DNA of 63,250 nucleotides, counting the filler. It is 11 parts of 11 records of this genome, joined end to end, with 100 filler letters (N's around TTAATTAATTAA, not from the genome) between each part and the next. Parts side by side here need not be neighbours in the genome. Positions count along the whole stretch, not along the records: positions 1 to 4,816 come from SRR15195285_430; 10 more parts are not named here. One strand, given 5' to 3'. A program made the position numbers and the translations under genes. Each line of letters starts with the position of its first letter. The first letter of the stretch is position 1. Shown piece by piece: positions 387 through 53,900 of this stretch. The notes beneath the pieces are model-generated. The model made no database searches, was not told the DNA's origin, and worked only from the letters and a program-made list of their open reading frames with translations.

Positions 387-3300
387 ATGATGACGATGGC
401 GCCACTGCTGCTACTAATGCTGGCGGCTCCTACGCTGTCGTCGCAGCGTGCTGTGACGCTGGAGGTACCGCAGCGAGTGGGCTTCCGCACACCGGAAGCG
501 AGCGACAGGTACAGAAATGGTTCCAACAGAGGTACGCGTCACCGTGTCACCGGCGGCTTGCTTGCATCAGTCATGACTGAGCTGCCGAGGCTGCTACGCC
601 AGCGGCCTCCCACAGGCGCCCAGGCACTGGCTGGCACTGAACGGAGCTGCGCGCTGCTGCCGACCTGCCTCACCAGGGATCTTTTGGTTTCCTCACACGC
701 TCACGACCATGCCGGACGACGGCGTGATCGTGCTGCGGGTTGCCGTGCACCCAGACGCGGAGCTCGCGAACAACCACGCGGCGATGTTCACCTCGGCAGA
801 CCGTGGCCGCTCGTTCCGATCGCAAACTGCCCCCAGCTGCAGCGCCGCGAACGTGTCAGCGTGCTCACTGCCAATGAGGACCGGCGACGACCGCCGCGTG
901 GGCAGCGAGCAGCCGAAGCGCTTCGGCCCGACGCTGTCCTGGGAGCTTTCCATTCCCCAGAGCGGATGCGCCAGCCAGCCAGACCAGCTCCTGGGCATAC
1001 CCTACCAGACGCACATTGGGCGTACCAATTCGAGCAGTGGCGTGGGCCACAGCCTTGGCTGGAATGCGTCGCTGCTGTCGGTGGATCCTGACGGAACTGT
1101 CGCCGTCACTGAGCCGCGCATCGAAGTCCCTGTCACCGGGCTGCCACATCCGGTTCTCAACGACTCGACTCTCAGCGGTGGGGTCAGACTTGCCAGCGCG
1201 CACGCGTACAGTGGCGCGGGCGTCACGCTCCCTGACGGTTCCCTGCTTGCCCTGCTGACTGACGTTGCGTACGTACCTCGTGCGTGCACGCCGATTAAGG
1301 CGCGTCCGTGCAAGTTCATCCTTGCGATACAGTCGACGAGCTGCGGGCGCAGCTGGCAGTACTTGTCTACGGTGACAGATGGCGGAACGGAGGGCTCGGT
1401 GCTGCAGCTAGACGACGGTCGGCTGCTGGCCGTGTTCAGGCACAACTTTCAAGGCGCGCCGTACCACAGCATGCGCTTCAAGCAAGTGCTCTCAGTGAAC
1501 CACGGCCGGAGCTGGGGAGCTGCGAAGGAGATGCGCGCGGAGGTGCGGGAAAACGCTTTTTTTGCGCCATTTTATGGTGAAAACAATCGTTTTGCCGAGA
1601 CAGGTTCGGGACAAAGATAAGGAAACGCTGACAAACAGGAGCCGTATTTCGCAGGCGGGCAGCGTACCTCCCCACTCAGTGATGCCTACGCTCAAGGCCC
1701 TGACTGGGTCCAGCGGCTACCTACTCTCGGGCGGGCGTGATGGGATGTATCTATGGTACTGCGCAACAACAGCATGTGTGGATGACGGCCAGTGGGTGTC
1801 GACAAACGTTGCCGCGCATCATAACGCCGTTGTTGACGATCCATTTGGACAGTTTCCAGCTGGGTGCGTCAACGAATCAGGTTGGCAGAACATTGGCATG
1901 TTGGGATGCCCAAGCAAATCGTACCTTGGTTTGACCATCCTTGCGCAAGCAAGAACTGCAGCTGATGCAGATACCGACACAGCCAGCTTTGTCGTGTGCT
2001 ACTCACACTGTGGTAACGTGAGCAGCTATGGCTTTTGTTTCAGCGAGATTGGGCGAGGACAGGAAGTATTCTGCGTGCGAGGTGGCTTGACAACAGCCGT
2101 CACTGCGAATACGAGTAGCCTGAAGACAGACGACGCCGATAGTTCGAGCCCTGCTCCTCAATCGCAACACGAGGTCGTCGTGCGAATCCGCACCTTGCAG
2201 ACGGACACAGCACACAACCCGACTCAGCGCTCGTACTGGATGCTGCAAGCGAGATCAGGTGCATCAATAGCAGTCAACGGGAGGTGTGACTCACCGTCGA
2301 CGGAGTGTGAAGGCTTCACTGCGACACAAGTACTATCGCTGATCGAAAAGCTGCGACCGACGACTCTAGAGCGCTTCATCAGTGGGCAGCAGGATCTGTG
2401 GAAGCAGGTGCCTGTAGATGCAGGCCAGCCAAACATGACCGTGAAGGAATTCCTCAATGCTGCCCAGGCGCGCCTCGCGCCAGGTGGCGAGATCACCGTC
2501 CGCGCATCGCTGAATGAGTGGTGCTGCGGGAAGCCCATCTGCCATCCAGGACCTGGTGGCTGCCCTGGTGCCGATGGACCAGTACCAAATGGTGGCTTTG
2601 CTAAGTTCCTCGAGACGACTGCTCAGCTGTGGAAGGTCGGGCAGCAGCTAAATGTGCCATTCAAGACGATCGGGCTCGATAATTGGTCGGGCCCGTGGAA
2701 GTCAGGCGTGCAACCAGCGACGGTGAAGGCGATGCTGCAAGGTGTCCAAGCACAGGGCTGGAATTCCATCGCAGTCAACGAGGTTGGTGGCTTTTTCTCA
2801 TCGTTTGGGTTGGCAGACACTGCGGAGATTGGCGTCGTGCAAGACGCAGAGAAGACCCCACCTGTTGTGGTGGATGCGACAAAGCTGGCCCAAGTCAAGA
2901 ACGCAGGCATTGCAAACGCTGCTGTGTATATCGACTTTCCAGCCCAGTACAGAGACTTTGACACTCTGAGCGTAGACCAGCAGGCAGATAGCCTGGTGGC
3001 GCTCGGTCGCAATCAGACAAAGGGAGGGTATAGGTTTGTGTGGGCAGTGGTGCAAGGGCACTGTACGCCTCTTGGTCACTACAACGGCACACATGGATCG
3101 TGTACGGTTCTCTGCGACACGACCAGGACGATGACGAGCAAGTCGGGCAAGTATGCCGGCAAGAGCCTCTTTGACGTAATTGTTTCAGAAGTTCGGACTT
3201 CGCGTGCGGGCCTGAAGACCGACGACACCAATAGTTCAGAGACAAGGGAGAAGGGCCATGGGGCCACATACTGCCCAGCCATCGACTGGCGAAACGTTCC

Positions 3301-4552
3301 ACCGCCACCGCCGCCGACTCTGCGTGGCAAGGTAGCTCATACCTCGCGCATCCTCACAGCAGGGTCGTACTGCCACGCTGGTGAGACTGGCGGTACCTGC
3401 GGTGGGTATCTGGACTATGGCGGTCCCACCTGCGTACTGAGCGCGAACGAGACGCTGCTATGCTTCTTCTGCGGAGAGAAGAAAATTCACTCCGACGACG
3501 ACAATTGGGCGGATGTAGTGCTACGTCGCTCGTTCGACAGAGGCCGGTCATGGCAGCCGTTGCAGGTTGTAGCGTCGGATAACAACGCGTCGACGCCACG
3601 GGGTGAGTGGCAGACGTACGGGAACACAGCTGCTGTGCTGGACCGCAGCACTGGCAAGATCGTCCTGCTGTTCGACAAGAACAACACTCGGCTGCTCGTC
3701 ACATCTTCGTCGGACCACGGTGCGACCTTCGAGTCGCCACGCGATATCACTGCCGCCACCAAGCCGAAAAATTGGGGCTGGACAGCGGTCTCTTTTTCCG
3801 GAGTGCAGCTGCGCACAGGGCCGCACCGAGGGAGGATGGTAGTCGCGCTCTGCTTCTTCGATCACTTCCCTGAGATATATCCGCCATACCGAGGCGATTG
3901 GTACCCAATATCTCGATCGGGCGTCCTTTATAGCGACACCGGCGGCAGGACGTGGGAGGCAGGAGGTCACACGCAGGTTAACATGACAGATAACGAAGCA
4001 GCGATTAGTGAGCTAGCCGACGGTACACTGGTGCTGAACAGCAGAAATTATCTCGGGGCCTCGCACTACGGCACCATCCACCCGTATGGTCAGAGCGACT
4101 ATGGAGAGGGCTACAACTACAGCGCGCACCCACCGCACCGCGGCCTCTCCTTCTCCACCGATTCTGGCGCAACTTTCTCAGACACGTACCACCCGCCGGC
4201 GCTCGAGGGTCCGACCTGCGAGGGAGCGCAGCTGACTGGGTGGGACACACCCGCTGAGCTAGGGATTGCCGGCAACCAGACGCTGTTCTTCACTAACCCT
4301 GCCGCTACGTTCGAGCGTGCAAACTTGACGATGAAGATGTCAGTCGATGGGGGGTGCGGGTGGTCGGAGGTCGTGCGTGTGAATACAGGCACGAGTATGT
4401 ACTCGTCGATCGTGCAGTTTGTCGACGGAGCCATCGGGGTGGCGTTCGACGATGGCAGCGACATCCACTGCCCGCCAAAGAGCACTTACGGTTGCGGCTC
4501 AAACAACGAGACGTTCAAACTGATCGAGCTGAGCAAGGCAGTTCCTACATGA
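387..4552 (+). CDS. Secreted multi-module protein: signal peptide + BNR/Asp-box beta-propeller + unknown module + GH33 sialidase-like module, separated by LKTDD linkers
   Basis: Exons 387-531, 677-1542, 1655-4552; GT-AG introns 532-676 (phase 1) and 1543-1654 (phase 0) join three ORFs in frame. Hydrophobic N-terminus MMTMAPLLLLMLAAP. Asp boxes SADRGRSF, STSCGRSW, SVNHGRSW, SFDRGRSW, SSDHGATF, SDTGGRTW, STDSGATF, SVDGGCGW. Sialidase-like NEAAISELADGTLVLNSR, ERANLT, SMYSS. Confidence 0.85.
1543..1654 (+). mobile_element. Introner-like spliceosomal intron (112 nt) with imperfect complementary ends
   Basis: GTGCGGGAAAACG...CGTATTTCGCAG; removal restores EMRAE|AGSVP; the ends can base-pair; A/T tracts contrast with the GC-rich exons. 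Mobility is inferred, only one copy is in the window. Confidence 0.5.
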
Positions 4553-5138: not shown

Positions 5139-8100
5139 ATGAAGGAGAACAAGACCATGATGGCCCTCCTGGCCGTGGCGGTGATTCTGGGCACGCTGGG
5201 CCAGAGCAACGCACAGACGGCGCTCGACCTCTTCCAGCAGGCGCAGGCGCTGGAGAACGAGGGCTGCACGATCACGTACGTGCCTTCTTGTCTCCTTCCT
5301 GTTCGTCTCTCTCCGTCATCCCTCTCTTACGGATTCGTTGGCACTCTGGAGAGAGAAGCTATTTCCTCTGCTATTGGGGGTTCGGAATGTTTTGCTGCTG
5401 GTGTTGGTCAAGATGCTGATTCAATGGGAGCAGGTACCCTCGGGGGCAGGTGCACGGTGGGGGTCATCGTCGGCTGCAGCTCGGCCTCGGCGCCTTGACC
5501 TCCCAGACATGCTCGCTCGCAACCGTCCAAGACCGAGCGGCAGAGGTGGACGCAGCCTGCTGCCCAGGAGACTCATGCGGTGGGCAGCAGCCCAGTTCGT
5601 GCGACTACCACTGCGCTAGCCACTTCGTGCCGTTCTATGCAGACTGTGGCACGCTCCTCAGCTCCGTCGGCCAAGATATGAGCGCGGTCAACGACATGTG
5701 TACGCCCAGCAGCACCAGCCAGATATCCAAGGCGGTGCAGAAGGCGGTGTGCCCTGACGCAATTCTTAGCTGCCACAATCCGACAGGCCCGATCTTGTGC
5801 GTCGATGAGACCGCCGGCGGTGGCGCCAACGCGGCAGAACTATCCGAGTGTACCAGCTGGACCAGCCAGGGTGGTGGGTGGAGAGCCAGTGGCGAACCAT
5901 GTGGTGGTATTGAATCGATCACAGGCTCTGCAAATTTGATCCAGAACGGAGATTTTGAGACCCCAACGCTTGCGCAGGCGGATTGCATGGGTGGGCATGA
6001 CTCGTCGTTCCGTGGGGACGACCATTGCCAGTACAAGTACTTGTACCCACCCATCTCAGAGTTTTGCCACGCCGACTGCCAAATTCCTGGGTGGCAAATT
6101 GGTGAGGCTGACACGGTTGCATCCGCAGGAGTCTACATTGCTCTAGCCGAGAACGGGAATATACCATGGGGAGGACTTGATTCACACATGGGTCGCCAGT
6201 ATCTTGTGTTGGAGGGCGCGGGAACTTACGCACAGCAGACACTCTTTGGCTTGCAACGTGGATCAGTCTACGAAGTCCGTCTACGGATGGCCAATCGGCC
6301 CGGCTATGGTGATGAAGAGAGCGTGGTGATCAAGGTGGACAACCATGTGGTCGGCGAGAGCAGCCATCCTCCCGACGACTTTGAACAATTTGGAACTGCT
6401 TTTACTGCTCGGAGCTCACAACCTGTACTGCGGATCGAGAACGACACTCCTAGTGACGATGATACGGCACTATTCATCGATGAGGTGACGGTCACGCCCG
6501 TGCAATTGGGAGCTGCAGTGGCCATTACCAACGGCGGTTTTGACGAACAGAGCGTGACTGATGACGGCGGCTTCACGTACACGACACCACAGGGGTGGAC
6601 TAGCTCGGGATCTGTGTTGATACAATCGGGTGCGTCGCCCTGGGGAGGTGTATCTGCCAACTCGGGGACCAACTTTCTTGGCCTGCAAGGGATGGGCGCT
6701 TATGTAGAACAGACAGTAGGTGGTCTCTCCGCTGGCACAACGTATGTCATCCAGTTCAGCTTTGGCGATCGTCCTGGGTACGGCGAAGACGAGATGATGC
6801 ACGTGAAAATCGATGGTGTTGTGATATGGGAAAGCATGCACCCTGAAGATGGGATGTCTTGGTACTCAGCAGTCTTTACAGCGGCGGCCGAAGCTGCTGT
6901 GCTTCGATTTGAAAACGATTCTCCGGAAGGCGACCGGTCTGTATTCCTTGACTCTGTGTCTATATTTACGACAGCAAACGGGCTGTCAGTTGTCCTTCCC
7001 GATTCATCTAGCGAATTGCAGCTATTTGACTTCCAGCTGTTGAACATTCCAATGACCTGGGAGGACGCAGAAGCCGAGTGCGAGCGCCGCAACCGTAAGC
7101 TAGCGTCAGTGCACTCCATCGAGGAGAACAACTATATTGCAACACTTCACCACGCAGACGATGCTGGCTTGTATGACGGGGCGTGGATCGGCGCACGTGA
7201 TTCAGCTGATGGTACTGGCGAACCAGGCTGCTGCTGGTCGTGGGTAGACGGCACAGAGTTCGGTGCGGCGCCTTCAGTTTTCCTAGCCACTATCAAGCCT
7301 GACTGATCCTGATATATGCAATTTTTTTGCTGTAGATTGGCACAACTGGGGTGCCGGCGAGCCCAACAACGGGCGCGCAACCTGCCCAGCGGATATTCGT
7401 GACGATGGGACGTGTGGCGAGAACGTGGCGCTGATTGCTGCTCACTTTTCTACTTGGGACGATCATCCAGAGTCAGGCGGTGGCAACGAACGCGACGCCG
7501 CCCGAAGCGACTACCAGTGGAATGATGCTGGGTCATCGTCCTTGGAACAAGCTGTCTGTGGCGCACCGTCCCAAGCAGGATCGCGGACCACCTTAGCATA
7601 CTACTCGTTCGACGATGGCACTCCACGCGATTGGAGCGGCAACCATAGAGATGGCGTCATTGAGGGTGGCGTCACGTTTGTTGATACTGGTGTCTCAGGC
7701 AAGTCGGCCAGCTTTGACGGGACGGGTCGAATTGTTGTGTCTGCGTTCCGGAACTGGGCGTGGGGGCAGCATTTTGCAGTTTCGACATGGTTTATGCGTA
7801 GTCCAGACGGTGCAGGCAACTACGAAGGCATCGTCAACAATGGGTACTACACGCATGGGTCTTGGGAAATCCGCATGGGGAGAGAGATGGGTGGCACCTC
7901 AATAGGCGGTGGAATCATTACGGAAGGGCACGGTGAAGCTTGGGATGTCAACGGCCTTGGGGCCCGTGTCAATGTATGGCACCACGTTGCCCTCGTGTAT
8001 GACTCGGACACAGTACATTTTTACCTCGATGGACAGCGCACTACAGATCAAGCCGACCACGGTGACATCGTCGCGCGAGCGACTGATGTGGTCATTGGCC

Positions 8101-10604: not shown

Positions 10605-11035
10605 GGTCTTGGGCGGCGCGAATTTGCAGACAAGAGGAATTCAATATTCATTCGCCGAATCTGGGCACTGGATCGCGTCCCGGCATTCACTTGAAACTCG
10701 TAGGATTTCCAGCATTTTCCCGCGTATATACGAGTCAATGACGCTGCACGAACTCGCAATTCTGTGCAGTTCTGAGCATCTCTTACACTTGCTTTTAGTC
10801 GAGTTTGCAGTCCAGAGAATCCGGTGAAAACTCGACGGCATTTGCCAGTACAATTGAAGGGAGTCTGAGTTAGCAGTACGTCGAGTGTTTCGATGTATGA
10901 AATTGAATGAATGTTGAATCATACTGCCTGTACCCGGATATGCGGTACGCGATCGATGCGCGTGCGTGGCGCTGCGCGCGTCGCGTTCGCCGGCGCGCGG
11001 GGTGCCGTTGCGGTCGTTTTACGTGATTGCAGAAG

Positions 11036-14000
11036 ATGTGGTCCGTGCTGGTGAGTGCTGCCATGGCACTCGCCGTTGCTGAGGCAACGTCGGCACGAGT
11101 GCGGCTTGGGGCATCGCCCACCGTGACAGTGAGCACGGGTGCTGGCCAGCACTTCACGCTGGAGGCAGTCGGGCCAGCGTTCCGTGTCGGCGTCTCTACG
11201 TCCGGTGCAGCACGCGCCAGTAGCGCGATGGCGCTGTCCACGCTCATGCTCCCAGAGAGTAGGGCTGACCAAGCAGCCAACGTCACGATCGAGCACTGGC
11301 CTGCCAGTACGGAGCTTGGCTCTGGGATAGGGCTGCGCGCCAGCTTTGGCGCAATTTACCTAGCCAACCGCACTTCGACGAAGGAGACCGTTCTCGTGCT
11401 CCTCGGCGCTTCTGGAAGTGAGATCACCCGAGGGGCGCTGGCTGCACGTACTGAGCCGCCTGCGTTGGGTATGAAGGCACAGGCGCCTTCGTGCGAGATC
11501 GCTGGCACGCCCAACACTGACAAGGTGAACGGGGACCGCCTCAAGGCCTCTGTCGAAGACCTGAAGTCGGACTGCTGTGCAGCCTGCACGGCTTTCGCAG
11601 GCTGCAGCGCGTGGATCTTTGCAACCGATGTGCCGGCAGGTGCTGACAACTGCTGGCTTATGGATGGCGTCACCAAGACAAAGACAGCTGCGGGGCGAAT
11701 CTTTGGGAAGGTCGGTGGGGCCACCAGTCGCGGACTGCAGCTCAAGCTCAGCGCATCGCCCGATGCCAAGAGTTATGGCTTCGGTGGCGCTGACCAGGAG
11801 CCCGGTGTCGATGGGGATCCATTTGCTGCGACGGCTGTGCAGCCGATTGTCGGCAATCGTGTGTGGCGTACACCATCCTACTGGGCGACCGAAGGGTACG
11901 CAGTTCTGGGTGTTGCATCGACCAGCCACGCCGCCGGCAATCTCGCTGGCTACGGTGCGAGTTGGCAACGTTCGAATAACTTCATCACATGGGATATCGA
12001 GGGGACACGTGGCGATCTGTACCTCGCGCCTGCAGCTACTCTCCCACAAGGAGTGTCTGCAATTGCTGAGCTGACAGGACCGGCGGCTGTACCACCAGCA
12101 TGGGCTTTTGGGTTTCTTGCGTGTCGGTGGGGGTGGGACAATCGCTCATATATCGAACAGACGCTGCACAAGTTCCGGTGCGTCCACTGCAACTACTCTC
12201 ATTACAGTGCTTTCCGTACCTCTCCAAACTACGCAGGGTCTAGCGGTCTGATCACGGCAGCGGCAGACCTGCCCTTCTATTCACACATGTGCCGGACTCT
12301 GCTTCAGGGACGGTCGCTTTCCACTGGATGCATTCATTTCGGATTATGGATGGTTTACCAATGTCCCAAATGCTCCTACTCAGGATGACTTTGGCTACAA
12401 CCCATCGACATTTCCAGAGCCCACGGCGCAGCTTGCGAGCTATCACGCTGATCTGCACGTCAAATTTGGTGGCATCCGCAAACCGCGGATTGCCAATGCT
12501 TCCATGTTGGCAGAGGTGAATGCCTCCGGGTTCCTGCTAGATGGCGCTTCCAATAATTTGAATTTCTCAATCCCGAAAGCACGAGAATGGTATGCAGAGA
12601 AGCAGGCGCACTACCTTCAAGCGGGAGTATGTTCTCCGACCAATGCTCCTTGCAAATCGCATCGCAACTGCTTGATCATACTAGTGTGCAATTGCTCCTG
12701 ACCAATGCTGCCAAATGGAGCAGGTAGACTTTTGGTGGAATGATGAGGGAGAGACTCAATATGAGACGTAATCGACCCGTTTGCTAGAACTGGACCATTG
12801 TTGTAGCTGTATTGTAGTTGTCCTGACATTGCCTTACGGAATTGTGTCTGTGATGTCCAGGTATCATCTCTGGAATATCGCACATCAGGCTGCATTGACT
12901 GCACATGATCCGACACGACGCCTCTTCACTCTGAATCGGGCCTACACGCCTGGGATTGGCCGTATGGGTGTAGGTATATGGACGGGTGATATTTCGGTGT
13001 CGTGGGCTGCTTTCCAACGGACGCCAGCCACGATCCTACGCTGGGGTCTCGCTGGGGCGTTCTTTGTGGCGTGTGATACGGGTGGGTTTGAAGGAAGTGC
13101 CACCCCACCAGACTTGCTTTCGCGCTGGTACCAGCTGTCGAGTGTGCTTCCGATTATGCGGGTGCACTCCCGTGTTCAGAATCCACCACACTGGCCGTGG
13201 CTGTATGGTGCGGCGGCAGAAAAACCGATGCGAGCCGCGCTGATGTTGCGTTACGCTCTCCTACCAATGATTTACAGTCTTGCTCATCACGCACGAGAGG
13301 TCGGAGCACCGCTCGTGCGACCACTAATGTACGAATTCCCGAACCAGGAGCAACTTGCACACGTCAGTGATCAGTTCACCCTGGGCACGTCGCTGCTCGC
13401 GGCTCCAGTGCTGGTGCAGAATGCCACTACCCGTACAGTTGTTCTACCAGGACTAGATGCGGGTACATCTCTCGAATTTCAAAACCAGACCTTACCTTCG
13501 TGGTTTGCCTTCAATTCTACCAAGACTCATGCCGGGCAGCAAAATCTCAGTCTGTCTGGACTGACGTTGAGCGATTTCCCTCTGTTTGTACGTGGTGGTT
13601 CGATCTTGCCGCTGGCACCAGTCGGTGCTCAGTACGTCGCCGAGAGCCAAACCATGGGTCCACTTGAGGTTCACATATACAGTGGTGCCAATACTCAGTT
13701 CGTTGTTGTCGAAGACGATGGAGAATCAACAGGCTATGCAACAGCAACAAAGGCGGTGCGTGAGATTGTCATTTGTTGTGATTCTAGTGCCCTGTTGTTT
13801 TTGCAATGATTGTGCATGTCTTGCAAAAATGGCTCCAAGTCACAAGAAGGCTGACTCGAAAGTGTAATTGGCGTAGGCGGTGAAACGGACTGTTTTACGT
13901 TGGGATGAGTCCTCACGCACACTAGAATGGAAAGCGACTGGAGACTACAGAGGCATCACAACGTATAAGCAGCTTAAGGTGGTGCTTTGGCTTCCTCAGG

Positions 14001-14208: not shown

Positions 14209-15756
14209 TTATTTTTCCTCGTGATCTTCTTCGCACGGGAAGGCAATGCTCTCCGGCATGCGAAAGGCAATCCATGCGAGGAAGGCAGTGATCATCGCAC
14301 AGCCATAGAAACTCAGACTGTGGTCAAGCGGCCACCCCAGACCGTTTGTAATTGACCATGCAAAGAGAGGGCCGCCAATTGCGGGACCGGTCATCTTACC
14401 GAACCCTGAGACAGCCATACTAAAGCCATTGAACACACCGCGCCGACCTGCGGGCACAGAGTTGTTGAGGACTAGGTTCATGTTTGTAAAGGACATTTCA
14501 GCCAATGCCTTCCTCAGCGCGAACATCGTTGCGACGTAGCCATACCTGCAACATCAAGCATCAGAGCGAGCGTTTGTGCAATGCGCATACAAAGCAGCGA
14601 GTGATAAGACTTGCACGTCGTACTGGATTGCTGGATCGGCCGAGAGCGGAAAGCGAGACGCCGTAGCCAGAGGAATCGCACACCAGAAGGGCAGCTGCAG
14701 ACAAACGAGGCGTCTCAATAAACCTAGTGTCCCATACATCCGATTAGCCGACGGATAGATCAGAACCTGAAAAACTATCAGCGAGCCACCAGTTACTGCC
14801 AGCACAGAACCAATCTGCGATGTGTTGTAGCCAAGCCCGCCGGCTGAAACAGGCGCGGAGGCCCAGAGGCTAAGCAGCATCGGATCAAAAAATTCGACAA
14901 ACATGGCCACTGTGTAGAAACTGATGCTAAGTTTTGGCTTCTCATCGAGGCAAAACTGGCATTTGTTTGACACGGTAGTTTGGGGAGCCGACTTGGAGTT
15001 GACACCAGAATTCACAACATCACTCAGTAAACTTTCGTTTTCAGAATCACTGTCGTTCGACTCCGCGGGTATCTCAGGCTGCTGGCCTTTGCCACCGCCA
15101 CACATAGGCTTTGCTCCTCCTGGTAGTGACTCTGGGAGCGTTTGCAGCAATAGCGCTCCTATGCTACAGAGGCCCGCAGTCACGAGGTTTGGCAGTGCGT
15201 ACGGATATCTCCCAAGTAGGCTATCTGCAGCGATCCACTCCGGATACTTGTCGGCCGGCCGCGCCAGTAGACCGCCAAACGTCGGACCCACAATCACAGC
15301 GATGCCCCAGCACGCCCCTAGGTAGCTCATAGCCCGGGGTTGGTGGTACGGTTCGATGAGTTCCGTGAGCATCATCTTGGCTGTACCGAGCATGAAGTCA
15401 CACAGGCCGTTGAGCAGGCGGATCCCTACTGCCAACCAGTAAACCTCACAGAACCCGAACGCCAGCGCCGTAATGCCGGTCATGACTACGCTAATCGTGG
15501 CCACCGGCTTTCGACCGTACCTGTCTGCGGCCCAGCCCCACGCGATAGACGTGACGACTCTCCCGAGTTGCTGCGCGGACGTCAGGTACCCAGCAAAGTA
15601 CCCCGGCTTTCGTGGGTCTTCCACCATTCCCAAATCTTCAACCAGTCTCGGGATGAACGGGAACACGACCGTCATGTTGAAGGCACACCCGAACATGCCA
15701 AGGCAACACACAGCGGTTGTGTAGTATGGAAACGGACCCGTCGGCTCGTCGCGCAT
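14209..15756 (-). CDS. MFS transporter, ZIFL/DHA1-like
   Basis: Exons 15756-14624 and 14545-14209 (intron 14623-14546). MFS motif A WGWAADRYGRKP, GPTFGGLLARP, GPAIGGPLFAWS; about 12 hydrophobic segments. Confidence 0.88.
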
Positions 15757-16694
15757 CCCTGCACCCGGCAGCTGCGTGCCCTCGGGCGTACACAGCGCGC
15801 AGCGCGCTGCCAGGCCGCAAGTAGCGTGACGGAACGGAGTCGCGCGCGCGCCACGCACACCCGCCCGGTCCCCGGCACACACACACCTATAGCAGAGGTC
15901 TATCGGGCCGAATGGGCTATTTCTAGCCCCGCTAAGCTACCAAGGGGGGGAGAGGCTAGGCGCTAGCCCAGCATNNNNNNNNNNNNNNNNNNNNNNNNNN
16001 NNNNNNNNNNNNNNNNNNTTAATTAATTAANNNNNNNNNNNNNNNNNNNNNNNNNNNNNNNNNNNNNNNNNNNNCGAGAAATCACTGGGGGAAGGAGCTT
16101 CTGACAAATGTCTCTTGGACAAAACTCGTGGAACTCTCGTTTGGGAAAAGGAGGACGCTGCTCCTGATCTTGTCACCGAGAGCCCAACCGGTAAAGCAAC
16201 GGTATCAGTTCACGATTGGTTTTGACAGTGTTGCGCAGCACCGTGACGTGTGAAAAATTGCACGGTCCAGCTTGCTGAGAAATGAGTCTCCCGGCTCGCA
16301 GAATTCTCAGCATACGGTATTGTCTGCGCGCGCTGAAGAACCTTCGTTTCCGCGTCGAATTCCCGCGGAATCGTGAGGTACCTGCCCGTAAATGCAGGCA
16401 GCTGGACTCGTGGACTGGGAGGACTGCCGTGGAGGCGGGACTCAGGGCACAGGGGTCAGGGATCGCGGCGCAGGGAGCCTGCCTCACTGCCTGCCTGAAC
16501 AGTCGCGACTCACACGCGCGCACGCCGGCCCGCATCCAGTGCAGCAGCACTGCGTGGCAGCGAGGCGTGGCTCCGTCCTGCCGCCCACCTGAGCTGCGTG
16601 GCGGTGGCGCTCCGTCCCGGGAGCTCCGGCACTGACGAGGCTGCCACTGACGGGACACTGCGCGAGCCGGTGCTCCTCACTCAGCACACGCACG

Positions 16695-28702: not shown

Positions 28703-30283
28703 TTGCCAAACTTTCTCCCTCAAGGAATGGCAGTGATGAACCCACTGGGGATTTACGCTGGGGATTTGCCCATGTTTTTGGAGGCAGCGGCCCTCGTGGT
28801 GGCACTGCCATCCACTAGCCAGGGATTTGCCCATGTTTTTGGAGGCAGCAGCCCTCGGGCTGCACGATGGTGGCCCTGGCAGGCGATGTCCGCAGGTACG
28901 GATGCTGCAGCAGCAGTGTCTGAGACGCTTCAATACGCCATAGGTAGTGCACTGGCGGTGATGGCTGGGCACGGATGGGTAATCGTCGACTGGACGATGC
29001 GGGAGGATGAGAAGGCTGTGGCTCGGACGGCGCCGCGTACGAGCGGACGGCAACGATCGGCCGTGTGGGTCCGGCGCATGCAGCACGAAGAGGAGGGTAG
29101 CCTCCCACCCCCGTCGGCAATGATGCGTGATGAAGCTGCGGCGCACGCAGATGAATGTACCGTGGAAGCTACCGAACCGCCGCGAGCAATAGCGCTGATG
29201 CACAGCTGTGCGGAGCTGCAGCGCATGCAGCGAGATGAAGAGCGGCACGTTGGTAGAATGTGGGAAGAAGAGCGGCACCGTCGGGCAGAGGAGGAAGCAA
29301 TACAGCAGCAGCAGCTTCTTCTGCAGTCGCATGCTGTGTACTGGTGCAACAAGGCGGCGCAGTCTCCAGCAGCTGACAGGCTGCGCGCAGCGTTGCAGGC
29401 CGTTGCTTCACTGGAGGCTGAGTTTGCTACGTTGCTGCAGCACACGCAAGATCAGCTGGTGCAGACACCACGTGCAACTGAGCCCGCAGTGTCCCTAGTG
29501 GAATCGACCAATGACGCTGGGCAGCAGTCATCAGCATCTTCACATGGGCATCTAGCATGTGCGAGTAAACAGGCACCACAGTCAGCGCTGGACCTGGCCA
29601 TAGCTGCCGAAGAGAGAGCTTTACGAGAAGTGATCGCCAGGCGTGAGGAGGACGAACGTCAGTTTGAGCTACTGGAAGCGACACAGCAAGCACGGCGGAA
29701 AGAAGCAGAGATGCTGGGTAGGCAAAAATTAGCAGCGACGCGTGCGGACAAGTTAGCGACAGAAGCAGAAGTGCGGACGTCAGCCGCAGGAACGAGTAGA
29801 GCGCACCAAGAAGAGGAAAGCCCACTTGAGATAGACGCGCACGCACCTTCACTCGGAGACTATCAACGTAATCCGATGATGGAGGTGGCAGCAGAACTGG
29901 GGTTGGAAGAAAGAATTCTTGAGTCTGACGGTGGCGAGGACAACGACCTAGATGACGAGAGTGATAGTGATGGTGACAGCAGTGATCATGGCGGTGATTG
30001 TGGGAATAGTAGCAAAAGCAGCGCTGCGCGGACCACTGGGACGATCACAGATTCACAGCACCCAAGACAACCAAGAGCGGACACGTATCAACGTAATCCG
30101 ATGAAAGAGATGGCCGAGAGAATAGAAGCCGAAGGGGTAGAATCATTTGGTGATGAAGCAACAGTAACAAGCGTTGCTGCAGAACACGAGCATATAATGG
30201 ATGTGGAAGCAGCTGCACGCAAGGCAGCTGCAGAAACGGCAGAGGCAGAGGTAGCGCGACTAGCCGCTGAGGAGGAAGCTGCG
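28703..30283 (+). CDS. Low-complexity coiled-coil/acidic protein, 3' truncated; start uncertain
   Basis: Long open frame rich in E/A/R, with the internal repeat YQRNPM twice; runs into the spacer. Confidence 0.6.
28761..28857 (+). repeat. 36-bp direct repeat (35/36 identical), 61-bp spacing
   Basis: GGGATTTGCCCATGTTTTTGGAGGCAGC(G/A)GCCCTCG at 28761-28796 and 28822-28857. Confidence 0.85.
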
Positions 30284-30383
30284 NNNNNNNNNNNNNNNNN
30301 NNNNNNNNNNNNNNNNNNNNNNNNNNNTTAATTAATTAANNNNNNNNNNNNNNNNNNNNNNNNNNNNNNNNNNNNNNNNNNNN

Positions 30384-33300
30384 CCATACCAACAGCGGAA
30401 ACTTCATCGAGGAGCAGCAGCAGCAAGAAATGCATCGACTTGAGTTAGCGCAGCGAGAACGGGAGCAGGTACAGTGGCTGCGCAAGAGGGAGAAGGACAT
30501 TTCACAGACCATAGCACAGGCTGCAAACACCGTAGACGCGGAGGTAACCCCGCACATTCAGCGGCAGCCGTCAGGCACAGCGTGGAGAGAAGTGCCTACT
30601 TCAGAGTCTCGGACACCTAGTTCCTCATCACCTGAAGACGCTCTTGACAAGCCCACTTCATCCTCCGAGGCTTCATCGGCTCCTGCTGCACGTACTGCAC
30701 AGACTCCCCATAACCGGCCTCCAGTATTGTCGCCCGAGGATAACGTGGATCCACGCGTCTCATCGAGCTCAGTCGGCTCAGCCAAACAGGGGCGTGCTTC
30801 AGAGGAAGCACTGTGGACACCGCGAACAGCACAGGAGCGCCGCGTGACTGTGAACTTGCGGCAAAAGACATCCCAGCTCGAGCAAGAAAATGCTCAGCTA
30901 AAGAAGCAGCTACAAGACTCCCGCTCGGCAGGTGCAGTTGTCAAGCAGGAGAGCGCGGCGATGGTTTTGCGGTTGCGACAGGCTACGAAAGACTTAGAAC
31001 GCGAACGGGTGCGGGCTGGTGACGAAAGTAGAGCCCGAGCAATTTGCGAAGGCGAGCGGGATGCCGCTACCACAATGGCCAGGGCGGCAACAGACAAGTT
31101 GGCCGCGATCGAGCGCGACCAGGAACGGTACCAGTCATCGATGAAAGACCATGCTGACAGGTCCAAGACGGAGGAGTTGTCTACACGGCGACATGCAGAA
31201 AGGGTTAGAACACATTCGCCGAGGCAGCCAGACGAGGAGCATCACTGGCAGAACGAGTCGTCCGAAAGCAGCGGCAGTGGACCCAGTGTGGCTGGTGGCC
31301 CAGCATGGGAAGTGCTCAACGTACAGCTTGAAACGGAGCGTGACGCACTTAGGGCGGCAGAAGATGCTTTATTGGAATCGGAGCAAAAGCACAAACTCTA
31401 CGGGCATGATTCGTCTGCGTCTGACAAGCAGGAAGCTGGTGCTCAGTCTCGGGATTCCGAGGATGACTCAAGGCAGATGGCTGCCTCCCTGCGCCGGTCT
31501 CTGTCACCACAGCCTGAGAGAGGAAATTTGTCGAGCCCTGTACAAACGCTTGAAGAGCTTGAGCAGCGATGGGCCACGTCCGCGCAACAGCAAACAGCAA
31601 TCGCTAGTCCCTGCGATGGCCCAGCTTCAATACTAGCATCCGCAGAAAACGATGAACCGGGATTGATAGAAGTAGTGTGCCCAATAGGTGTCGCAAGCGG
31701 CGACTGGCTTACTGTCGAAATCGGCGAAGAAGGTGGTACACTTGATGTACAGGTACCGCCTGGGATTAATCCAGGCGATGCATTCCTTGTCGATGAACGT
31801 GAACAGGTTGGATCGTTGGTGACAGGTTTGGACGAATCCAGTGCTGCCGCAGCGGCAGCAGCACTCGAAGCGGCAGAACAGCGCGCAGATGAGTCAGAGC
31901 GAGAGCTCAGCGAGGTGATGGCCCAAGTTGCAGCTGCCTTGCAACGACGCACAGAGGATGCCGCCAAAATGGAACAAATGGAGTTAGCTCTAGCGACAGA
32001 AAAACAAGGGCGAGCAGCCGACCAGGCTGGTCTGAGCTCCTATCTAGACCGTGAATCGAGTCTCAAACAGTCTTTGGCTGAAGAGGAGCGACGGACAGCA
32101 CAGTCTGTGCAAGAGCTGGAGAGCATTCGAGGGCAACTGGAGATTGCAGAAGCTGAGCTACAAAAGGAAAAGCTTGCGCACGGGGAAGCCAAAGCTGAGA
32201 CTGAACGACTGATGGAGCAAGCCCGAAACAGTGCTGCGGACGTCGCGAACGCATCTGAAACAGCGTCTGCAGCGCTCCTTGCAGAGCTCCGTATGGAGCA
32301 GAACGTACGCAGTGCAGCTGAGGACGAGGTTCAGACGCTGCGTGCCGAGCTGACTAATGCGCAACATACGTCTGCCGAGGTGGCACGTTTACAGGCCCGC
32401 GTGGAACAAGAGCAGAAATCGGTAGCGGAGGTGCAGAAATCTCTCGAGCTAGCAGAGAAAAAGGTGTCAGAGGTTGTCGAGGAAACGGCATCAGCGATCA
32501 TGTTGGCACGGGCAGAGGAAGCTGCATTAGCCGTAGTGAACGCAAGAAGAGATTTGGCATCAGAAAACGAAGAGTCAGTAGCGAAAGCCGTAATGGCTGA
32601 GCGATCACGGTTAGAAGCCATCCATGCATCAGCGTCACAGCAAGCCGCAGAAGAAATAGCTCTGCTGAACACAAAAGCGAAAGCCCAATCTTTGCAGGAA
32701 AAAGAAGCGGTGGCGCTATGGGAAGAGCAAGAGACTGCATTGATGCGACAGCTAGAGGAAGCTGAGAATGATCTGGCAGAAGTGACACAGGCATATCCAC
32801 TGGCGTTGGAAGAAGCTAAAGCTTCCCTAGCAGCGGCTCACGAGCTGGAGTTGCAGGCACTGCGAGATGAGCCTCAGCCTGAGCCTGAGGACATGGTGCA
32901 TGTGAACGAGTTGGTGGCGGAGATAGAAGAGCTGAAGGTAGCGGCAGAAACACAGGCGCAACAAGAACAGGCTGCTGTTAATCTGTGGGAGAAGCAAGAG
33001 GCGTTGTTGACTAAGCAGATCGAGGAAGCAAAGCATGATCTGGAGGTCGCTCGCGAGACGAGTGCTGAGTTAGAGTCACGGAGCACAGCTGCTGCGAAAG
33101 AGATAGCCGATCTGAAGGCACAAACAGAAGCACAGGAGGTGCAAGAGAAAGAAGCGGTGACGCTGTGGGAACAGCAAGAAGCCGCATTAATGCGACAACT
33201 ACAAGAAGCCGAGAGCGATCTGGCTGAGCTCACACAGGCGTATCCTCTAGCGCTGGAGGAAGCTAAAGCTTCGCTAGCTGAAGTGCACGCACACGAAATG

Positions 33301-35595
33301 GAGGTTGCCACCGGCGTCTCAGCGCTTGTCTCGGCCGAGCCAGCATCGTTGGCCGAGCTTGCTGATGAAGACCGCATTGATGAACTACGTGCTGAGATAC
33401 ATGAGAAGCAAGAAGAAATCGAAGAGCTGTATGAAATCCACGAGCAGCGATCAAAGCAGATTTCTGCGTTAGAGCAAGATGTGCTGCACATCGGGCGCCA
33501 GTTGTCAGAGGCAGAGACTTTGAATGGAACTTTACAAGCTGAGCTGTCTGATGCGCGCACGTCAAATGCTGCAGACAATGTCGCCGCCGAAACAGTGCTG
33601 AGGGTTGAACTGAATGAAGCTCAGGCCGCAAATGAAGTGTTGCGGGTTCAGTTGGCAAATCTGGTTGAGCAAGACGACACCTGCAGTGTGCCGAAGCTCC
33701 AGGCAGATTTGCTCAAGCAAGGGGCAGCGATGAAGACTGCTGAGGAGGCCCATCGGAAATCGCTGCAGAACGTGTTGGCTGCACACGCAGCGGAACTCAA
33801 TGCTCTCAAGGATGCACACGCCGTTGAGGTTGCAGCCGCGCGAAGTGAAGCTGTGAAAAGGTCTGAAACTGCACAGGCGGCCTTACTGAACGTGCGCACG
33901 ATGCTCACACCTGTGAAGGGCAATGTGGACCGAGCTGCTGATAATGTGACGCCAGGTCATTTAATTCCACCGCCGGTAGCTTCCCGAAAGGACGACACCA
34001 CTGTGGCACTGCAGGAGCGCGAGGCTGCAGCGCTGCAGCAGGTTGAAGAGCTACGAGCACGTTTGGAGCAAATGGAAAAGATGCATCAGCCCAGGCCTGT
34101 TGGTAGAGATGGCAATGTTAGCGCTGTGGCGCGATCTCGATCGAGCGAAATGGCTCACACCGTGCGTGCGATGCTATCTGGGGTGGAGATCGGAACACCG
34201 GCAAGAGGCACAGACTCGGGAGCACCTTCAGCTGCGCAGCTGCAAGATGAATACCTGACAAGGGCAGTGTTAGCTGCCGAGATTGCTCAATCCAACACTC
34301 CAAATACGGCAAAGCGAAAGCAAGAGCTGCTGGGATCGGCCGGAGCCGGCAGCACCCCTGCAGATCTTGCTAAATATCGCCCAGATGATTATGACAGCAC
34401 AGTCGAAAGACGCCAGCGAGAGGCAGAGATCAAGTCTACCCTCGAAGCAGGGATGATATCCCCAGCCGAAGCAGAAAAAATGCTCCTACATCACAAGCTT
34501 GAGGCCTCGCTGACACCGGCAAAGGACGACATAGTTCACAGTCCGCAAGCCGAAAATGCGCCTGTGGACGCTACCAGCTGGGATCAGCTAGCGCACAACC
34601 TCGACAATGCACTGACTGATGCACACCAGACCATGCAATCTACTGCCGATCGCGCCGATGACGATGCCAATGCTGACGAAATAAACCCATTCGAACCCTC
34701 GTCTGGAATGGAACTGGAGTCCTTTGTTCCTGAGCCGACTGCAGAAAACGACAGTGATCCGTTCAAGACCTCGTCTGATGAAGATGATAGGCCGCTGTCT
34801 CCCGTCCCCGAACATGAAGAGTCACTAGGAATGCCCTGTTCAGACATTGCAGACAGCTGCGAGGAGGACATGGCAGTGGCGGGTGGCCAGAATGATCCAG
34901 CGACTATTACAGCCAGCATGGACATGTCCGACCGCCACCATAACGGTGATTTCACGCAAGAAACTGGCGCATTCACTGTTGAAGAGCAGATGGACCCTTT
35001 CGAAGAAGCTGCGGCCAGCGCAATGCTGTCCAGGATGGCTGCGGGCGCGGATGACGCCAGCGATTCCGACCCGTTTCGCACTTGGTCCGACGAGGACACG
35101 CGGTTGAGCATTCTCAGCCCGGTACTTGAGGATGCCGCGGGTGAAGCTGGTTCTCAGTCAGACTTATCGCAGCAGTCGGCTGTGTCGCTGCTCGAAGAGC
35201 ACTGCCGACATGCTTCTGTCGCGACTGCGACTGTTGCATCGGGCAGCAGCACTGCTGCGGAGAACATGCATTTGGTGAAAAGCATGCAAGCAAGCCTCGA
35301 CGAACACAGTCCGATTCCTGCAAGCGCATACGTGACGGAGAGCCTCGTCGAACGCATGAAAGTGATCTCTGCCAGCACGTCATCAACGCCCACTGCCAAT
35401 GCGCTAGCACACCGACGGACTCAGTCCGCACAGCAGCCAATATTTCCACAAGAGGAGCTGCCGCGCAGTCCCGACAATGTGAACGTCTCGATGAGCAGTC
35501 TTCTTGATGGATCTTCGGATGATTTTTTATCAGAATCTGAAAGTGGAAGCACTGAAGACGAACACGTGGACGTGGAGGTGGAGACAGACGTGTGA
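30384..35595 (+). CDS. Large coiled-coil protein, probably 5' truncated, with an internal ~45-aa duplication
   Basis: 1721-aa ORF, heptad-rich; QEKEAV.LWE.QE.ALMRQL.EAE.DLAE.TQAYPLALEEAKASLA twice; small IEVVCPIGVASGD...VQVPPGINPGDAFLV module. Confidence 0.8.
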
Positions 35596-37030: not shown

Positions 37031-37300
37031 NNNNNNNNNNNNNNNNNNNNNNNNNNNNNNNNNNNNNNNNNNNNTTAATTAATTAANNNNNNNNNNNNNN
37101 NNNNNNNNNNNNNNNNNNNNNNNNNNNNNNGGTCAGACCCAGCGCTAGCACCGCCGATTTGTAGGCGTATTGGCGGCTGGATTTAAGCGGCGCCCCAAGG
37201 CGTGCCCACGAGCATCGCAGGCGGCCCCTGGGTGCGTAGATACGCAGGCTCCGCGGGTGGACCGGCCGGGTCAGCTTCGTCCGAAACAACCTCCCCGAGA

Positions 37301-39889
37301 ATGCATCCGCCGTTGCTACTGCTGGTGGTGGTGTCGATGTGCTTCTCTAGCCCGGCGGCTACCGCGGCTGCGTCCAAGCCTCCGCATGTATTGTTCGTCC
37401 TCGCCGACGACTTGGGCTGGGGCAACGTGGGCTGGCACCGCGAGACGCCGACCCCGGAGGTCAAGACGCCGAAACTGGACCAGCTTGTGAAGGATGGCAT
37501 CGAGATGAACCGGATGTACACCTGGCACGCGTGCTCGCCTACGCGGTCGTCGCTGCAGACAGGCAGGTTGCCTATTCATGTCAACGCGCACAACGCCAAC
37601 CCGGAGATCTACAACGCCAGCTCCGCCTCAGGCACGGGCGCAGGGATCCCGCGCAACATGACGGGCATGGCTGCCAAGCTCGCAGCCGCAGGATACAACA
37701 CCGTCTTTGTTGGGAAATGGGATGCTGGCATGGCGACGCCGCACCACACGCCAGCGGGGCGGGGCTATAAATCCGCGCTCTGCTACTTTCATCACGCGAA
37801 TGACTACTGGTCGCAACACGATCCAGCTGGTGGCAAAGGGGCGCCTTGCGCGGAGAAGATTGGCGTTGACCTTTACGACACAGCGCAGCCTGCTTGGGGC
37901 CTAAACACCAGCATCGTCCACCACAACTACCGAGACAACCAAGCGTATGAGGAAGTGACGTTCCACACTCGACTGTCGAAGGAACTCGCCGCGCACGACG
38001 CTACCACCCCACTGTTCATGTTTTACGCGGCCCACCTCGTCCACTTACCGTACCAAGTCCCACAAGACTATCTCGACGCGATGTCGAAAGCCGGAGGGGG
38101 ACCGATTGACAACTCCACTTCCGAGGACGATTCAATGCGTATGATTTATCACGCCATGGTTCACTACCTCGATGACGCCGTCGGTGCTCTGGTGGAGGAA
38201 TGGAAGGCGAAGGGGATGTGGAACACCACTCTCATGTGGTTTTGCTCCGACAATGGAGGGCCGATCTACGCCGGAGGCAACAACTATCCGATGCGTGGCG
38301 GCAAGTACTCAGAATTCGAGGGAGGCGTGCGTGTCAGCTCGTTCCTCTCTGGCGGTATGGTCCACCTTGCAAAACGTGGCTTGCGGTCGGAGGCACTGGC
38401 ACACGTTGCGGATGTCTACGTGACCCTCTGCTCTCTGGCCAAAGTCTCCGCCGTCGACGAGTGGGCGATAACCTCTAGGCTGCCGCCGGTGGACGGATTC
38501 GATCTCAGTGCGGTCTTTCTGTCGCCCAACCCTGCCACGGTCTCCGCCTCGCCGCGCCAAGTAGTGCCGCTCGCACCGCTCACGGGTGGTGATCTGGGAA
38601 ACCTCGAGGAATATGAGCGTCTACTCGCCACTTGGAACGCACGGCAACAACAGCAGCAACGTCGTGAGGTCACAGCTGTCGTGTCGCACGACCCGGCGAC
38701 GGTGCAGTGGGATGTGCACATGAACGCTACGTGTGGCGCCGATACCGGGAGCAAGATTAAGCCGAATGGCCACCTAGTAAACGTGACGCTTGCAGAGTGT
38801 GAGGAGCACTGTGGGGCGAATCAGTTGTGTAAAATGCTCCAGTACGCCAACCACGACCGCTGGTGTGGGCTGCACAACGCGACTTCAGCACCGATACCCT
38901 CGAAACAAGACGATAAGTTCGACTGCGTCTGCAAAGGCCCCTGTCCGGCTAGACCGGGCCCGTCGCCGTCACCTCCGGGGCCGAAGCCGCCAAAGGTGCC
39001 GATGTGCTACAGATCGCAGAAGTGCACGGTCGACCCGACATCTGGCTTCGAACCTTTTGCCGTGAAGAAGAAGCAAACCGAGTCCGAATGCTGCAGCGCG
39101 TGCGTCGCCCTGGTGAACAGCACGCATGGTGGTCCGGTCTGCGCGCTGGCCGTCCTCCTGCCCGACCCGGAGAGTTCTGACAAAAGCGGCTCTTGTGCCC
39201 TATACACTAAGTATGCTCTAGGTGCCAAGGCTAATAACCCCAACAAAACTGTCTGCTTTCAGCCGTCGGCGGACAACCCACCACCAGAGCCCGTAATCAT
39301 GGGTCAGGCTGGAATCGTTGTTGGGGATATGAAGCTTGTGACTGGGGTGCAAGTCAATATGGCGATCTTCACTGGGCCCCACTACCCGAACGCTTCGACC
39401 CCCCACGATCTGATCGACGGCAAGGTGCCAAGCTTTGGCTGCAGCACACCAGCGAAGCCATGGGGCTGCCTCTTCAACCTCTCGTCTGACCCGACGGAGC
39501 ACAACGATCTTGCCACTGCGCAACCTGCAGTCGCGAAAGCGCTCCTCCACACCCTGCGAAACGTCTCCCACACTTACTTTGACCCAGAACGTGGTGACGT
39601 CGACCCAGCTGCGTGCGCTCGAATGATGGGCCCGAATCACGGTTTCTTCGGACCGTGGCTAGAGATGGAGATGGAGATGGAGATCCCGGCGGCTGCTCAA
39701 GCCGACGGGGAGAACAGCAACACGGTGCTTGCCACGGCCGAGCTAACGCAGCGCGTGCCGCCGACGCCTACAACGACGCTGCAAGAGGACAGCGGGGTCA
39801 TCTACCGCCTGGAGATTGAGCTGGGTATGTTGGAGAAAGCAAGGAAGGAATGGGCAGGCAAGAAGCAGACGAATGATTTAAGTCAATAA
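37301..39889 (+). CDS. Secreted S1 (FGly-type) sulfatase, arylsulfatase B/I/J-like, with PAN/apple-like insertions
   Basis: Signal peptide; PHVLFVLADDLGW, CSPTRSSLQTGR (CxPxR), GKWDAG, SDNGG, NYPMRGGK, EGGVRV, LFNLSSDPTEHNDLA. Confidence 0.93.
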   Translation: MHPPLLLLVVVSMCFSSPAATAAASKPPHVLFVLADDLGWGNVGWHRETPTPEVKTPKLDQLVKDGIEMNRMYTWHACSPTRSSLQTGRLPIHVNAHNANPEIYNASSASGTGAGIPRNMTGMAAKLAAAGYNTVFVGKWDAGMATPHHTPAGRGYKSALCYFHHANDYWSQHDPAGGKGAPCAEKIGVDLYDTAQPAWGLNTSIVHHNYRDNQAYEEVTFHTRLSKELAAHDATTPLFMFYAAHLVHLPYQVPQDYLDAMSKAGGGPIDNSTSEDDSMRMIYHAMVHYLDDAVGALVEEWKAKGMWNTTLMWFCSDNGGPIYAGGNNYPMRGGKYSEFEGGVRVSSFLSGGMVHLAKRGLRSEALAHVADVYVTLCSLAKVSAVDEWAITSRLPPVDGFDLSAVFLSPNPATVSASPRQVVPLAPLTGGDLGNLEEYERLLATWNARQQQQQRREVTAVVSHDPATVQWDVHMNATCGADTGSKIKPNGHLVNVTLAECEEHCGANQLCKMLQYANHDRWCGLHNATSAPIPSKQDDKFDCVCKGPCPARPGPSPSPPGPKPPKVPMCYRSQKCTVDPTSGFEPFAVKKKQTESECCSACVALVNSTHGGPVCALAVLLPDPESSDKSGSCALYTKYALGAKANNPNKTVCFQPSADNPPPEPVIMGQAGIVVGDMKLVTGVQVNMAIFTGPHYPNASTPHDLIDGKVPSFGCSTPAKPWGCLFNLSSDPTEHNDLATAQPAVAKALLHTLRNVSHTYFDPERGDVDPAACARMMGPNHGFFGPWLEMEMEMEIPAAAQADGENSNTVLATAELTQRVPPTPTTTLQEDSGVIYRLEIELGMLEKARKEWAGKKQTNDLSQ

Positions 39890-53681: not shown

Positions 53682-53900
53682 CTCTCTCGCTCCTTGCGGG
53701 CACGCGAGTGTCCTGAGACAGCGACAGAGACAGAGACAGAAAAGCACAGTGAGAGGGCGTCACTCGTTAGTGCCTCCGAGCTTCGGGACCGGCGGCGCCG
53801 AGCTTCCGAGCATGCAGCCTCGCTTGCAACGATCGATGCGAGCTTCGGGACTCCCGCGCGCGCGCGCGCGGGTGCGCACGCGCGCGGGCCACAGTTGGAA

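Follow-up and report, generated by a model that had tools for sequence, protein, structure and literature searches.

In bacteria, multi-modular glycoside hydrolases whose linkers are conserved are well known, among them the Caldicellulosiruptor-type and cellulosomal enzymes. Among eukaryotes, secretory polyproteins are cut at a repeated linker, as in the proteinase-inhibitor precursor of Nicotiana alata (EEKKN) and in fungal Kex2-processed repeat proteins, and the plastid-targeted polyproteins of Euglena and dinoflagellates carry decapeptide linkers that are removed by a dedicated protease. Here we describe a gene at positions 387-4552 (+ strand) of a 63,250-nucleotide (nt) stretch of DNA, called the window throughout, whose product joins a BNR propeller (BNR1), a TIM-barrel module (module B) and a predicted GH33-type sialidase, in this order, behind a signal-peptide-like N-terminus; the pentapeptide LKTDD stands at both joints. 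Both copies belong to a motif that recurs across the lineage, (hydrophobic)-K-[T/S]-D-D, behind which x-[D/E/N] is frequent. The explanation that we consider best overall, at a probability of roughly 60%, is that such proteins consist of shuffled cassettes which share this motif as a junction tag, with a site of proteolytic processing as its most likely role.

Like the bacterial multi-modular glycosidases, these proteins combine catalytic and binding modules in one secreted chain with low-complexity linkers, reuse a module across architectures and have linker DNA as the place of recombination. Unlike them, they belong to a eukaryote with introns, their linkers are of variable length without Pro/Thr repeats and hold a strict four-residue island, and the fused forms swap the signal peptide for the tag. 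Like the secretory polyproteins, they have one signal peptide, units that stand on their own and a short motif conserved in the linkers; in those polyproteins, however, one small unit is repeated and cut, whereas here unrelated full-size enzymes are reshuffled and cleavage is a proposal. With the plastid polyproteins they share a protist chain with conserved inter-unit linkers, but the compartment and the linker sequence differ, and the plastid chains repeat one protein.

In the literature, we found no description of a K[T/S]DD junction tag, of KTDD cleavage or of such a protist secreted-enzyme polyprotein, and the main text of PMC8599508, supplements aside, makes no mention of glycoside, sialidase, CAZy, polyprotein, fusion or linker. 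To our knowledge, a eukaryotic tag that both joins unrelated full-size enzymes and marks exchange points is apparently undescribed. Picozoa are abundant uncultured marine heterotrophs whose feeding mode is unclear. Polysaccharide-degradation domains are reported to be enriched in them in one preprint (10.64898/2026.04.17.719054). The junction tag and the exchange of cassettes offer a handle on how the picozoan enzyme repertoire is built and diversified, and the tag gives a simple sequence rule by which giant predicted proteins can be split into functional units.

The junction motif and the exchange of modules

Both LKTDD copies were encoded in one frame within one open stretch, and each lay in a copy of a 28-nt direct repeat (25/28 identical; coordinates in Table 2), the longest direct repeat in 1900-3500. 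The degenerate 28-nt pattern had two matches in the window and none in any of 100 shuffles. The start-to-start spacing of the repeat was 1092 nt, or 364 codons, and the motifs were followed by ADSS and TNSS, respectively. No other [LMIV][KR][TS]DD was found in the six frames of the 63,250-nt window. The first-pass annotation of this DNA, made from the letters alone, had reported the two positions, the xxSS tails and the 25/28 repeat, and had placed both copies at boundaries between the BNR propeller, an unknown module and a sialidase module; all of this was found again. The degenerate MRTGDD that it also listed, at 874-891, was rejected as a third junction, as it sits inside BNR1, in a loop of variable length with the conserved block ACSLP on one side and RFGPTLSWE on the other. 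The length and sequence of that loop differed in every homologue.

Linker 1 was crossed without a joint by DNA contigs from two studies and by one RNA-library contig, and linker 2 was bridged by DNA contigs from two studies. The gene region contained no N and was backed by independent contigs (the whole window holds 880 N). There were no loose contig ends at either repeat copy among those listed (four runs), a result that is uninformative on paralogues in those samples. Alternative or trans-splicing at the motif was rejected: the window is contiguous, DNA contigs of the two studies span both junctions, and no joints were reported. In the exon-3 protein as modelled by AlphaFold2 (AF2), motif 2 (residues 520-524) followed two residues past the last helix of module B (505-518) and opened a 63-residue stretch, 520-582, most of which was of low confidence (520-537 and 545-582).

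Enrichment of the motif was measured in 20 proteins, the longest per architecture (13,782 residues), all relatives of the three modules of the gene. K[ST]DD occurred at 13 sites, all in distinct contexts, in 8 of the 20 proteins, against an expectation of 0.16 and a maximum of 3 in 2000 shuffles. Among all 353 proteins fetched, 34 carried the motif; 32 of these held copies of the same 13 junctions, and the remaining two were bacterial sialidases with the motif within an Asp-box. All 13 sites read as inter-module, with boundaries taken from Pfam or from stand-alone homologues (Table 1). The residue before K was L, M, V or F in 10 of the 13 junctions, and the fifth position after K (the second residue past DD) was D, E or N in nine; the conserved hydroxyl position held T eight times and S five times. 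The spacer between motif and next module ranged from 0 to >15 unconserved residues, and the linkers were rich in S, T, D and E and predicted to be disordered.

Table 1. Junctions at which K-[T/S]-D-D was found, read from stand-alone homologues and Pfam scans (P0333 without a Pfam scan).
Upstream module	Motif	Downstream module	Source
BNR1	LKTDD	module B	window
module B	LKTDD	sialidase	window
beta-helix	MKTDD	sialidase	L001, P0281
rhamnosidase C-domain	RKTDD	sialidase	L002, P0267
sialidase	SKSDD	further module	P0267
unnamed	AKTDD	unnamed module, no Pfam match	P0014
GH28	LKSDD	module B	P0014
unnamed	MKSDD	PAN	P0023
unnamed	VKTDD	module B	P0023
unnamed	FKTDD	module B	P0034
unnamed	VKSDD	unnamed	P0333
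unnamed	LKSDD	module B	P0333
unnamed	LKTDD	BNR1-like	P0337

The modules of tagged proteins included BNR propeller, TIM-barrel, GH33 sialidase, GH28, GH78-type rhamnosidase, beta-helix, sulfatase and PAN. Clusters of the related proteins included EukProt entries labelled Picozoa sp. COSAG02, 04 and 06, which fits the suggestion in the first-pass annotation that the motif may recur in predicted picozoan proteins. After these labels, the host is probably a Picozoa-like marine protist lineage, and the motif sits in the linkers of modular, predicted secreted, polysaccharide-degrading proteins of that lineage, at joints between unrelated modules in other genes as well as in this one. In one cluster of proteins that are >90% identical (P0004, P0018, P0019, P0023, P0028), indels lay directly after VKTDD; the variants behind it were Q-S, QKEHEGRAVQVP, QQHEGRAVQVP and QEHEAGHATQVP, so that linker length was hypervariable.

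A search for metagenome loci returned three, two of which (L001 and L002) share the sialidase cassette of the window. The cassette was 90.9% identical in nucleotides over 1398 nt between the window and L001, 93.5% over 477 nt between the window and L002, and 98.9% over 474 nt between L001 and L002. The alignments of the cassette started at the motif (window 3211-3213, K codon), and the sequences upstream of it were unrelated, namely module B in the window, a beta-helix in L001 and a rhamnosidase C-domain in L002 (PF17389 and PF17390 were precomputed for P0141). Modules were also seen in further arrangements: module B was found after BNR1, after GH28, after an unnamed module and after two other unnamed regions; the sialidase was terminal or, in P0267, continued as ...LVSKSDDASS... 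into a further module; and in P0337, a BNR1-like module followed ...SLKTDDGL....

Each of the three modules also occurred as a stand-alone protein with a signal-peptide-like N-terminus: module B in P0035, P0038 and P0052, the sialidase in P0003, P0148 and P0146, and BNR1 in P0335 and P0353. The modules thus appear to be self-contained units, each also encoded alone, and in the fused forms, the tag and linker occupy the place of the stand-alone leader. Homologous modules are thus combined and ordered differently from protein to protein, joined through the motif, which is what the first-pass annotation had suggested looking for. Since one sialidase cassette stands behind three different modules and stand-alone forms exist, shuffling at a conserved junction motif is well supported, and we hold the motif and the shuffling of cassettes at it to be very probable.

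Two further features of the cassette were observed. At ~1128-1200 of L001, a ~34-nt tandem duplication shifts the frame of the sialidase cassette. The spot after ...FDKNNT varied among close relatives (TRLLVTSSS, TKLLVTSTS, TKIFVTSSL, TQLLITDSS), and several contigs end there.

Proposed cleavage, linkage and the level of constraint

The four residues form a conserved island within linkers that vary in length and sequence, which suggests that they are a recognition site. The tag would then most likely be a proteolytic processing site of the secretory or digestive-vacuole pathway: one precursor would be made with a single signal peptide, and its enzymes would be released by cuts at the tag. Processing is preferred because the tag stands where the stand-alone forms gain their mature N-terminus and because the enzymes suit a digestive compartment. 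An acid, vacuolar endopeptidase specific for Asn/Asp would be compatible with a site of two Asp residues. We know of no nameable protease specificity that fits K-[T/S]-D-D, and no protease was found among the 18 large open reading frames (ORFs) of the window. Putative cleavage at the motif is a tentative proposal, to which we give somewhat less than an even chance. If the tag is cleaved, these eukaryotes would make secreted or digestive enzymes as polyproteins, which would be unusual, and the tag might serve enzyme engineering as a portable linker.

Several points weigh against shuffled, tagged and processed cassettes as the explanation. The motif was absent from the junction of module B with GH88 (P0014 and P0002; ASRSSITQAHG) and from the junction upstream of module B in P0005; it was degenerate elsewhere, as KNGDD in P0014, KTDE and KHDDD in P0333, and VKTAT and VKTDK in P0336; and further large genes of secreted type in the window (GH31, GH95, sulfatase and DUF642-lectin) all lacked it. 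The 20 proteins were picked after the motif had been seen and are all relatives of the modules of this gene. Of the 13 junctions, five lead into module B and three into the sialidase, and the junctions are therefore not fully independent. The AF2 model is silent on the upstream side of motif 1, where residues 1-167 form only part of a propeller and have a predicted local distance difference test (pLDDT) score of <50; BNR1 homologues aligned poorly in the input for this protein (16-19% identity). The DNA came from four motif copies, three of them homologous, so that the question of peptide or DNA rests mainly on protein data.

The alternative that survives best takes the motif as an uncleaved linker feature, that is, a hinge, a cap, or a site of O-glycosylation or phosphorylation of Thr/Ser in an intact multi-enzyme chain, with shuffling breaks tolerated in the linker since the folds are unharmed there. 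The restriction of the second position to T or S would be as expected for a modified hydroxyl, the S/T/D/E-rich and predicted disordered linkers suit it, some junctions do without the motif, and intact multi-catalytic glycosidases are common in bacteria. A passive hinge, however, needs no four invariant residues amid linkers of 0 to >15 residues, we can name no modification consensus that fits K-[ST]-D-D in all 13 junctions, and the exact position of the motif at the signal-peptide cleavage region of the stand-alone forms fits the creation of a mature N-terminus. We regard an uncleaved linker as possible, although we would not expect it. An extended form of the processing explanation, in which hydrolases are concatenated behind one signal peptide and the tag is at once the cutting signal and the DNA crossover point, we consider unlikely; if true, new enzyme combinations would arise in frame and then be released separately.

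At the DNA level, junction 1 of the window matched the junction of L001 at 24 of 26 nt. The chance that the six codons of K-D-D-D-S-S would be identical was ~0.002 at the codon usage of the window, in which AGT makes up 9% of Ser codons and GAT 40% of Asp codons. The xDSS behind motif 1 is typical of the sialidase-type linker and was not present in the other four linkers before module B. From this we infer that the two local linkers are probably copies of one ~26-nt DNA stretch. The latest event would have placed module B between BNR1 and the sialidase, with the repeat as its scar; two linkers may have recombined, or the linker may have been duplicated by an insertion. Among the BNR1 homologues collected, none lacked module B and had the tag join BNR1 directly to the sialidase. 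The other junctions keep only the four residues, exchange T and S, and have unrelated flanks; it is thus the peptide, and not a DNA signal, that is under lasting constraint. The earlier suggestion that the DNA motif might be an in-frame recombination site was accordingly borne out in part: homology breaks exactly at the motif and the codons are shared (P ~0.002), but the other junctions are conserved only as peptide.

If the ~26-nt DNA were itself functional, as a signal for site-specific recombination or for mobile cassettes by which modules are chained in frame, the peptide would arise only as a side effect. The rare AGT codon within the identity of the two local copies, the breakpoints of cassette homology exactly at GAAGAC and the match with the L001 junction would all fit. 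Against this stand the flanks of the other junctions, which are unrelated and have T and S swapped (KSDDGDG, KTDDQEAA, KSDDVVV, KSDDNDAM), an inserted segment with neither terminal inverted repeats nor a recombinase, and the absence of the DNA motif from the rest of the 63 kb; the breakpoints are also explained by ordinary homology-assisted recombination between linkers that resemble each other. We judge a DNA signal of this kind to be improbable.

A single local event of no wider meaning, either a slip or a 1092-nt insertion with target-site duplication, would explain a direct repeat that flanks exactly one module at a spacing that is a multiple of three. Eleven more junctions with the motif in seven other proteins, and the motif upstream of module B in four other architectures, make this very improbable; they contradict the possibility, raised with the original observation, that the two copies are one local duplication without parallels. 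Insertion of a transposon was also tried: the flanking direct repeat is present, but the ends of the insert have no inverted repeats, and what was inserted is a conserved, enzyme-like module for which 106 homologues were found.

Assembly chimeras at a short shared repeat are the least probable source of the alternative architectures: short contigs of metagenomes or transcriptomes are the source of most relatives and a shared 24-28-nt core could mislead small-k assemblies, but the string KRMKTDDTDSS of the L001 type recurred in six fetched proteins and SIRKTDDTDSS of the L002 type in three (clusters of 19 and 17 member sequences, respectively, from ENA and JGI), and the window architecture was bridged by contigs from two studies and found in a second public record (P0001, two residue differences). 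These recurring strings, the cluster sizes, the bridging DNA contigs and the genomic nature of L002, which is probable because an unspliced intron was read in it by eye (GTGAG donor at ~position 27), make both chimeric assembly and alternative splicing unlikely.

Gene structure and the three modules

The gene is eukaryotic and lies on nuclear DNA. Its existence at 387-4552 agrees with the first-pass annotation, which had taken it for one open frame; the homologues pointed instead to three exons in three frames, the third of which spans 1655-4552. With both introns removed, the product was stop-free and had 1302 residues. The donor and acceptor of intron 1 were GAG/GTACGC at 532 and CACCAG/G at 676 (slashes mark the splice sites), which gives '...GSNRG/IFWFPHTL' across the joint. 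Homologues ran uninterrupted across the joint of intron 2 as '...EMRAA-VGSVPPHSVMPTLK', and the stand-alone proteins P0335, P0334 and P0353 were colinear with the product, with '...GSNRGIFWFPH...' and '...EMRAAVGSVPPHSVMPTLK...' spanning both joints. Splicing of both introns is thus the probable reading from homologues.

Table 2. Features of the gene at 387-4552.
Feature	Position	Strand	Description
Exon 1	387-531	+	start codon, hydrophobic N-terminus (MMTMAPLLLLMLAAPTLSS...), start of BNR1 (VGFRTPE, FRIP-like)
Intron 1	532-676	+	145 nt, GT..AG; from homologue colinearity
Exon 2	677-1542	+	bulk of BNR1; holds MRTGDD loop 874-891
Intron 2	1543-1654	+	112 nt, GT..AG, phase 0; from sequence reading
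Exon 3, first part	1655-2095	+	C-terminal part of BNR1, ends ...CVRGGLTT
Linker 1	2096-2173	+	AVTANTSS-LKTDD-ADSSSPAPQSQHE; motif 2120-2134, repeat copy 2118-2145
Module B	2174-3193	+	(beta/alpha)8-barrel, glycoside-hydrolase-like; no Pfam family
Linker 2	3194-3268	+	RTSRAG-LKTDD-TNSSETREKGHGAT; motif 3212-3226, repeat copy 3210-3237
Sialidase cassette	3269-4552	+	Cys/Pro-rich N-terminal extension and GH33-type BNR_2 propeller; stop codon 4550-4552

Among the contigs compared with the window, no spliced RNA contig was found for intron 1. An RNA-library contig of a relative departed from the window at 1540, and intron 2 was kept unspliced in two RNA-library contigs, which may reflect DNA carry-over or intron retention. 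The public model P0001/P0010 (992 residues) starts within intron 2 and therefore does not contain the first two exons. The intron sequences had no further copies in the window beyond chance matches of 12-16 nt. A piece of intron 2 of ~35-45 nt (1586-1636) was matched by several short contigs with flanks unlike the window, and loose contig ends were present inside the intron at 1590 and 1625; in these communities, the piece seems to recur as a short repeat at other loci.

The N-terminus encoded by exon 1, read by eye, is a putative signal peptide. BNR1 gave a weak BNR_2 match (8e-05, below the Pfam cut-off). Its part in exon 2 was colinear with P0335, P0334, P0336, P0337 and P0353, and stand-alone BNR1 forms stopped 3 to 16 residues past the ...CVRGGLTT at which the module ends in the window.

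No Pfam match was obtained for module B of the window or for its homologues P0034, P0037, P0039 and P0044. Its AF2 model (pLDDT 86.6; predicted template modelling score 0.89) had alternating strands and helices, and the top Foldseek matches in the PDB were nearly all glycosidase barrels, although weak (template modelling score <=0.54; GH113, GH5, GH35 and Cwp19), so that the model points to a GH-A-like (beta/alpha)8 fold of glycosidase type. Atlas gave leads only, with scores of <=0.87 (GH5-like, DUF4434 and GH53). D182, D267 and D328 (alignment row numbering over window 2135-3226) were nearly invariant among the homologues. Stand-alone forms began at VVRIRT directly after the signal peptide, and some distant homologues were fused to a sulfatase, CBM96 or a beta-helix. 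Module B may be regarded as a candidate new glycosidase family that is often fused to such modules.

The module at 3269-4549 is a predicted GH33-type sialidase. It matched PF13088 at 61.9 bits (cut-off 31.4; E 8.3e-17) and resembled solved exo-alpha-sialidases (1eur at 8e-18); of the 47 distinct PDB sequences matched, nearly all were sialidases. The Asp-boxes (S-x-D-x-G-x-x-W/F) in the translation were SFDRGRSW, SSDHGATF, SDTGGRTW, STDSGATF and SVDGGCGW.

Other genes of the window

Genes of housekeeping type in the window included ECM29, EF-hand, Ras, ankyrin, UBC and JmjC. Polysaccharide-related genes were dense and comprised DUF642 with a C-type lectin, PAN, GH31, sulfatase, GH95 and two major facilitator superfamily transporters, at 5450-7303, 11027-12385, 12781-13806, 37202-39886, 54324-57755, 14557-15882 (-) and 52326-53747 (-); none contained K[TS]DD. 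Two long open frames, 30430-35592 (+) and 28703-30328 (+), coded for 1721 and 542 residues, respectively, and had no Pfam match at E 1e-4. The ORF at 30430-35592 lies in a stretch of strong AT and GC skew (30-34 kb).

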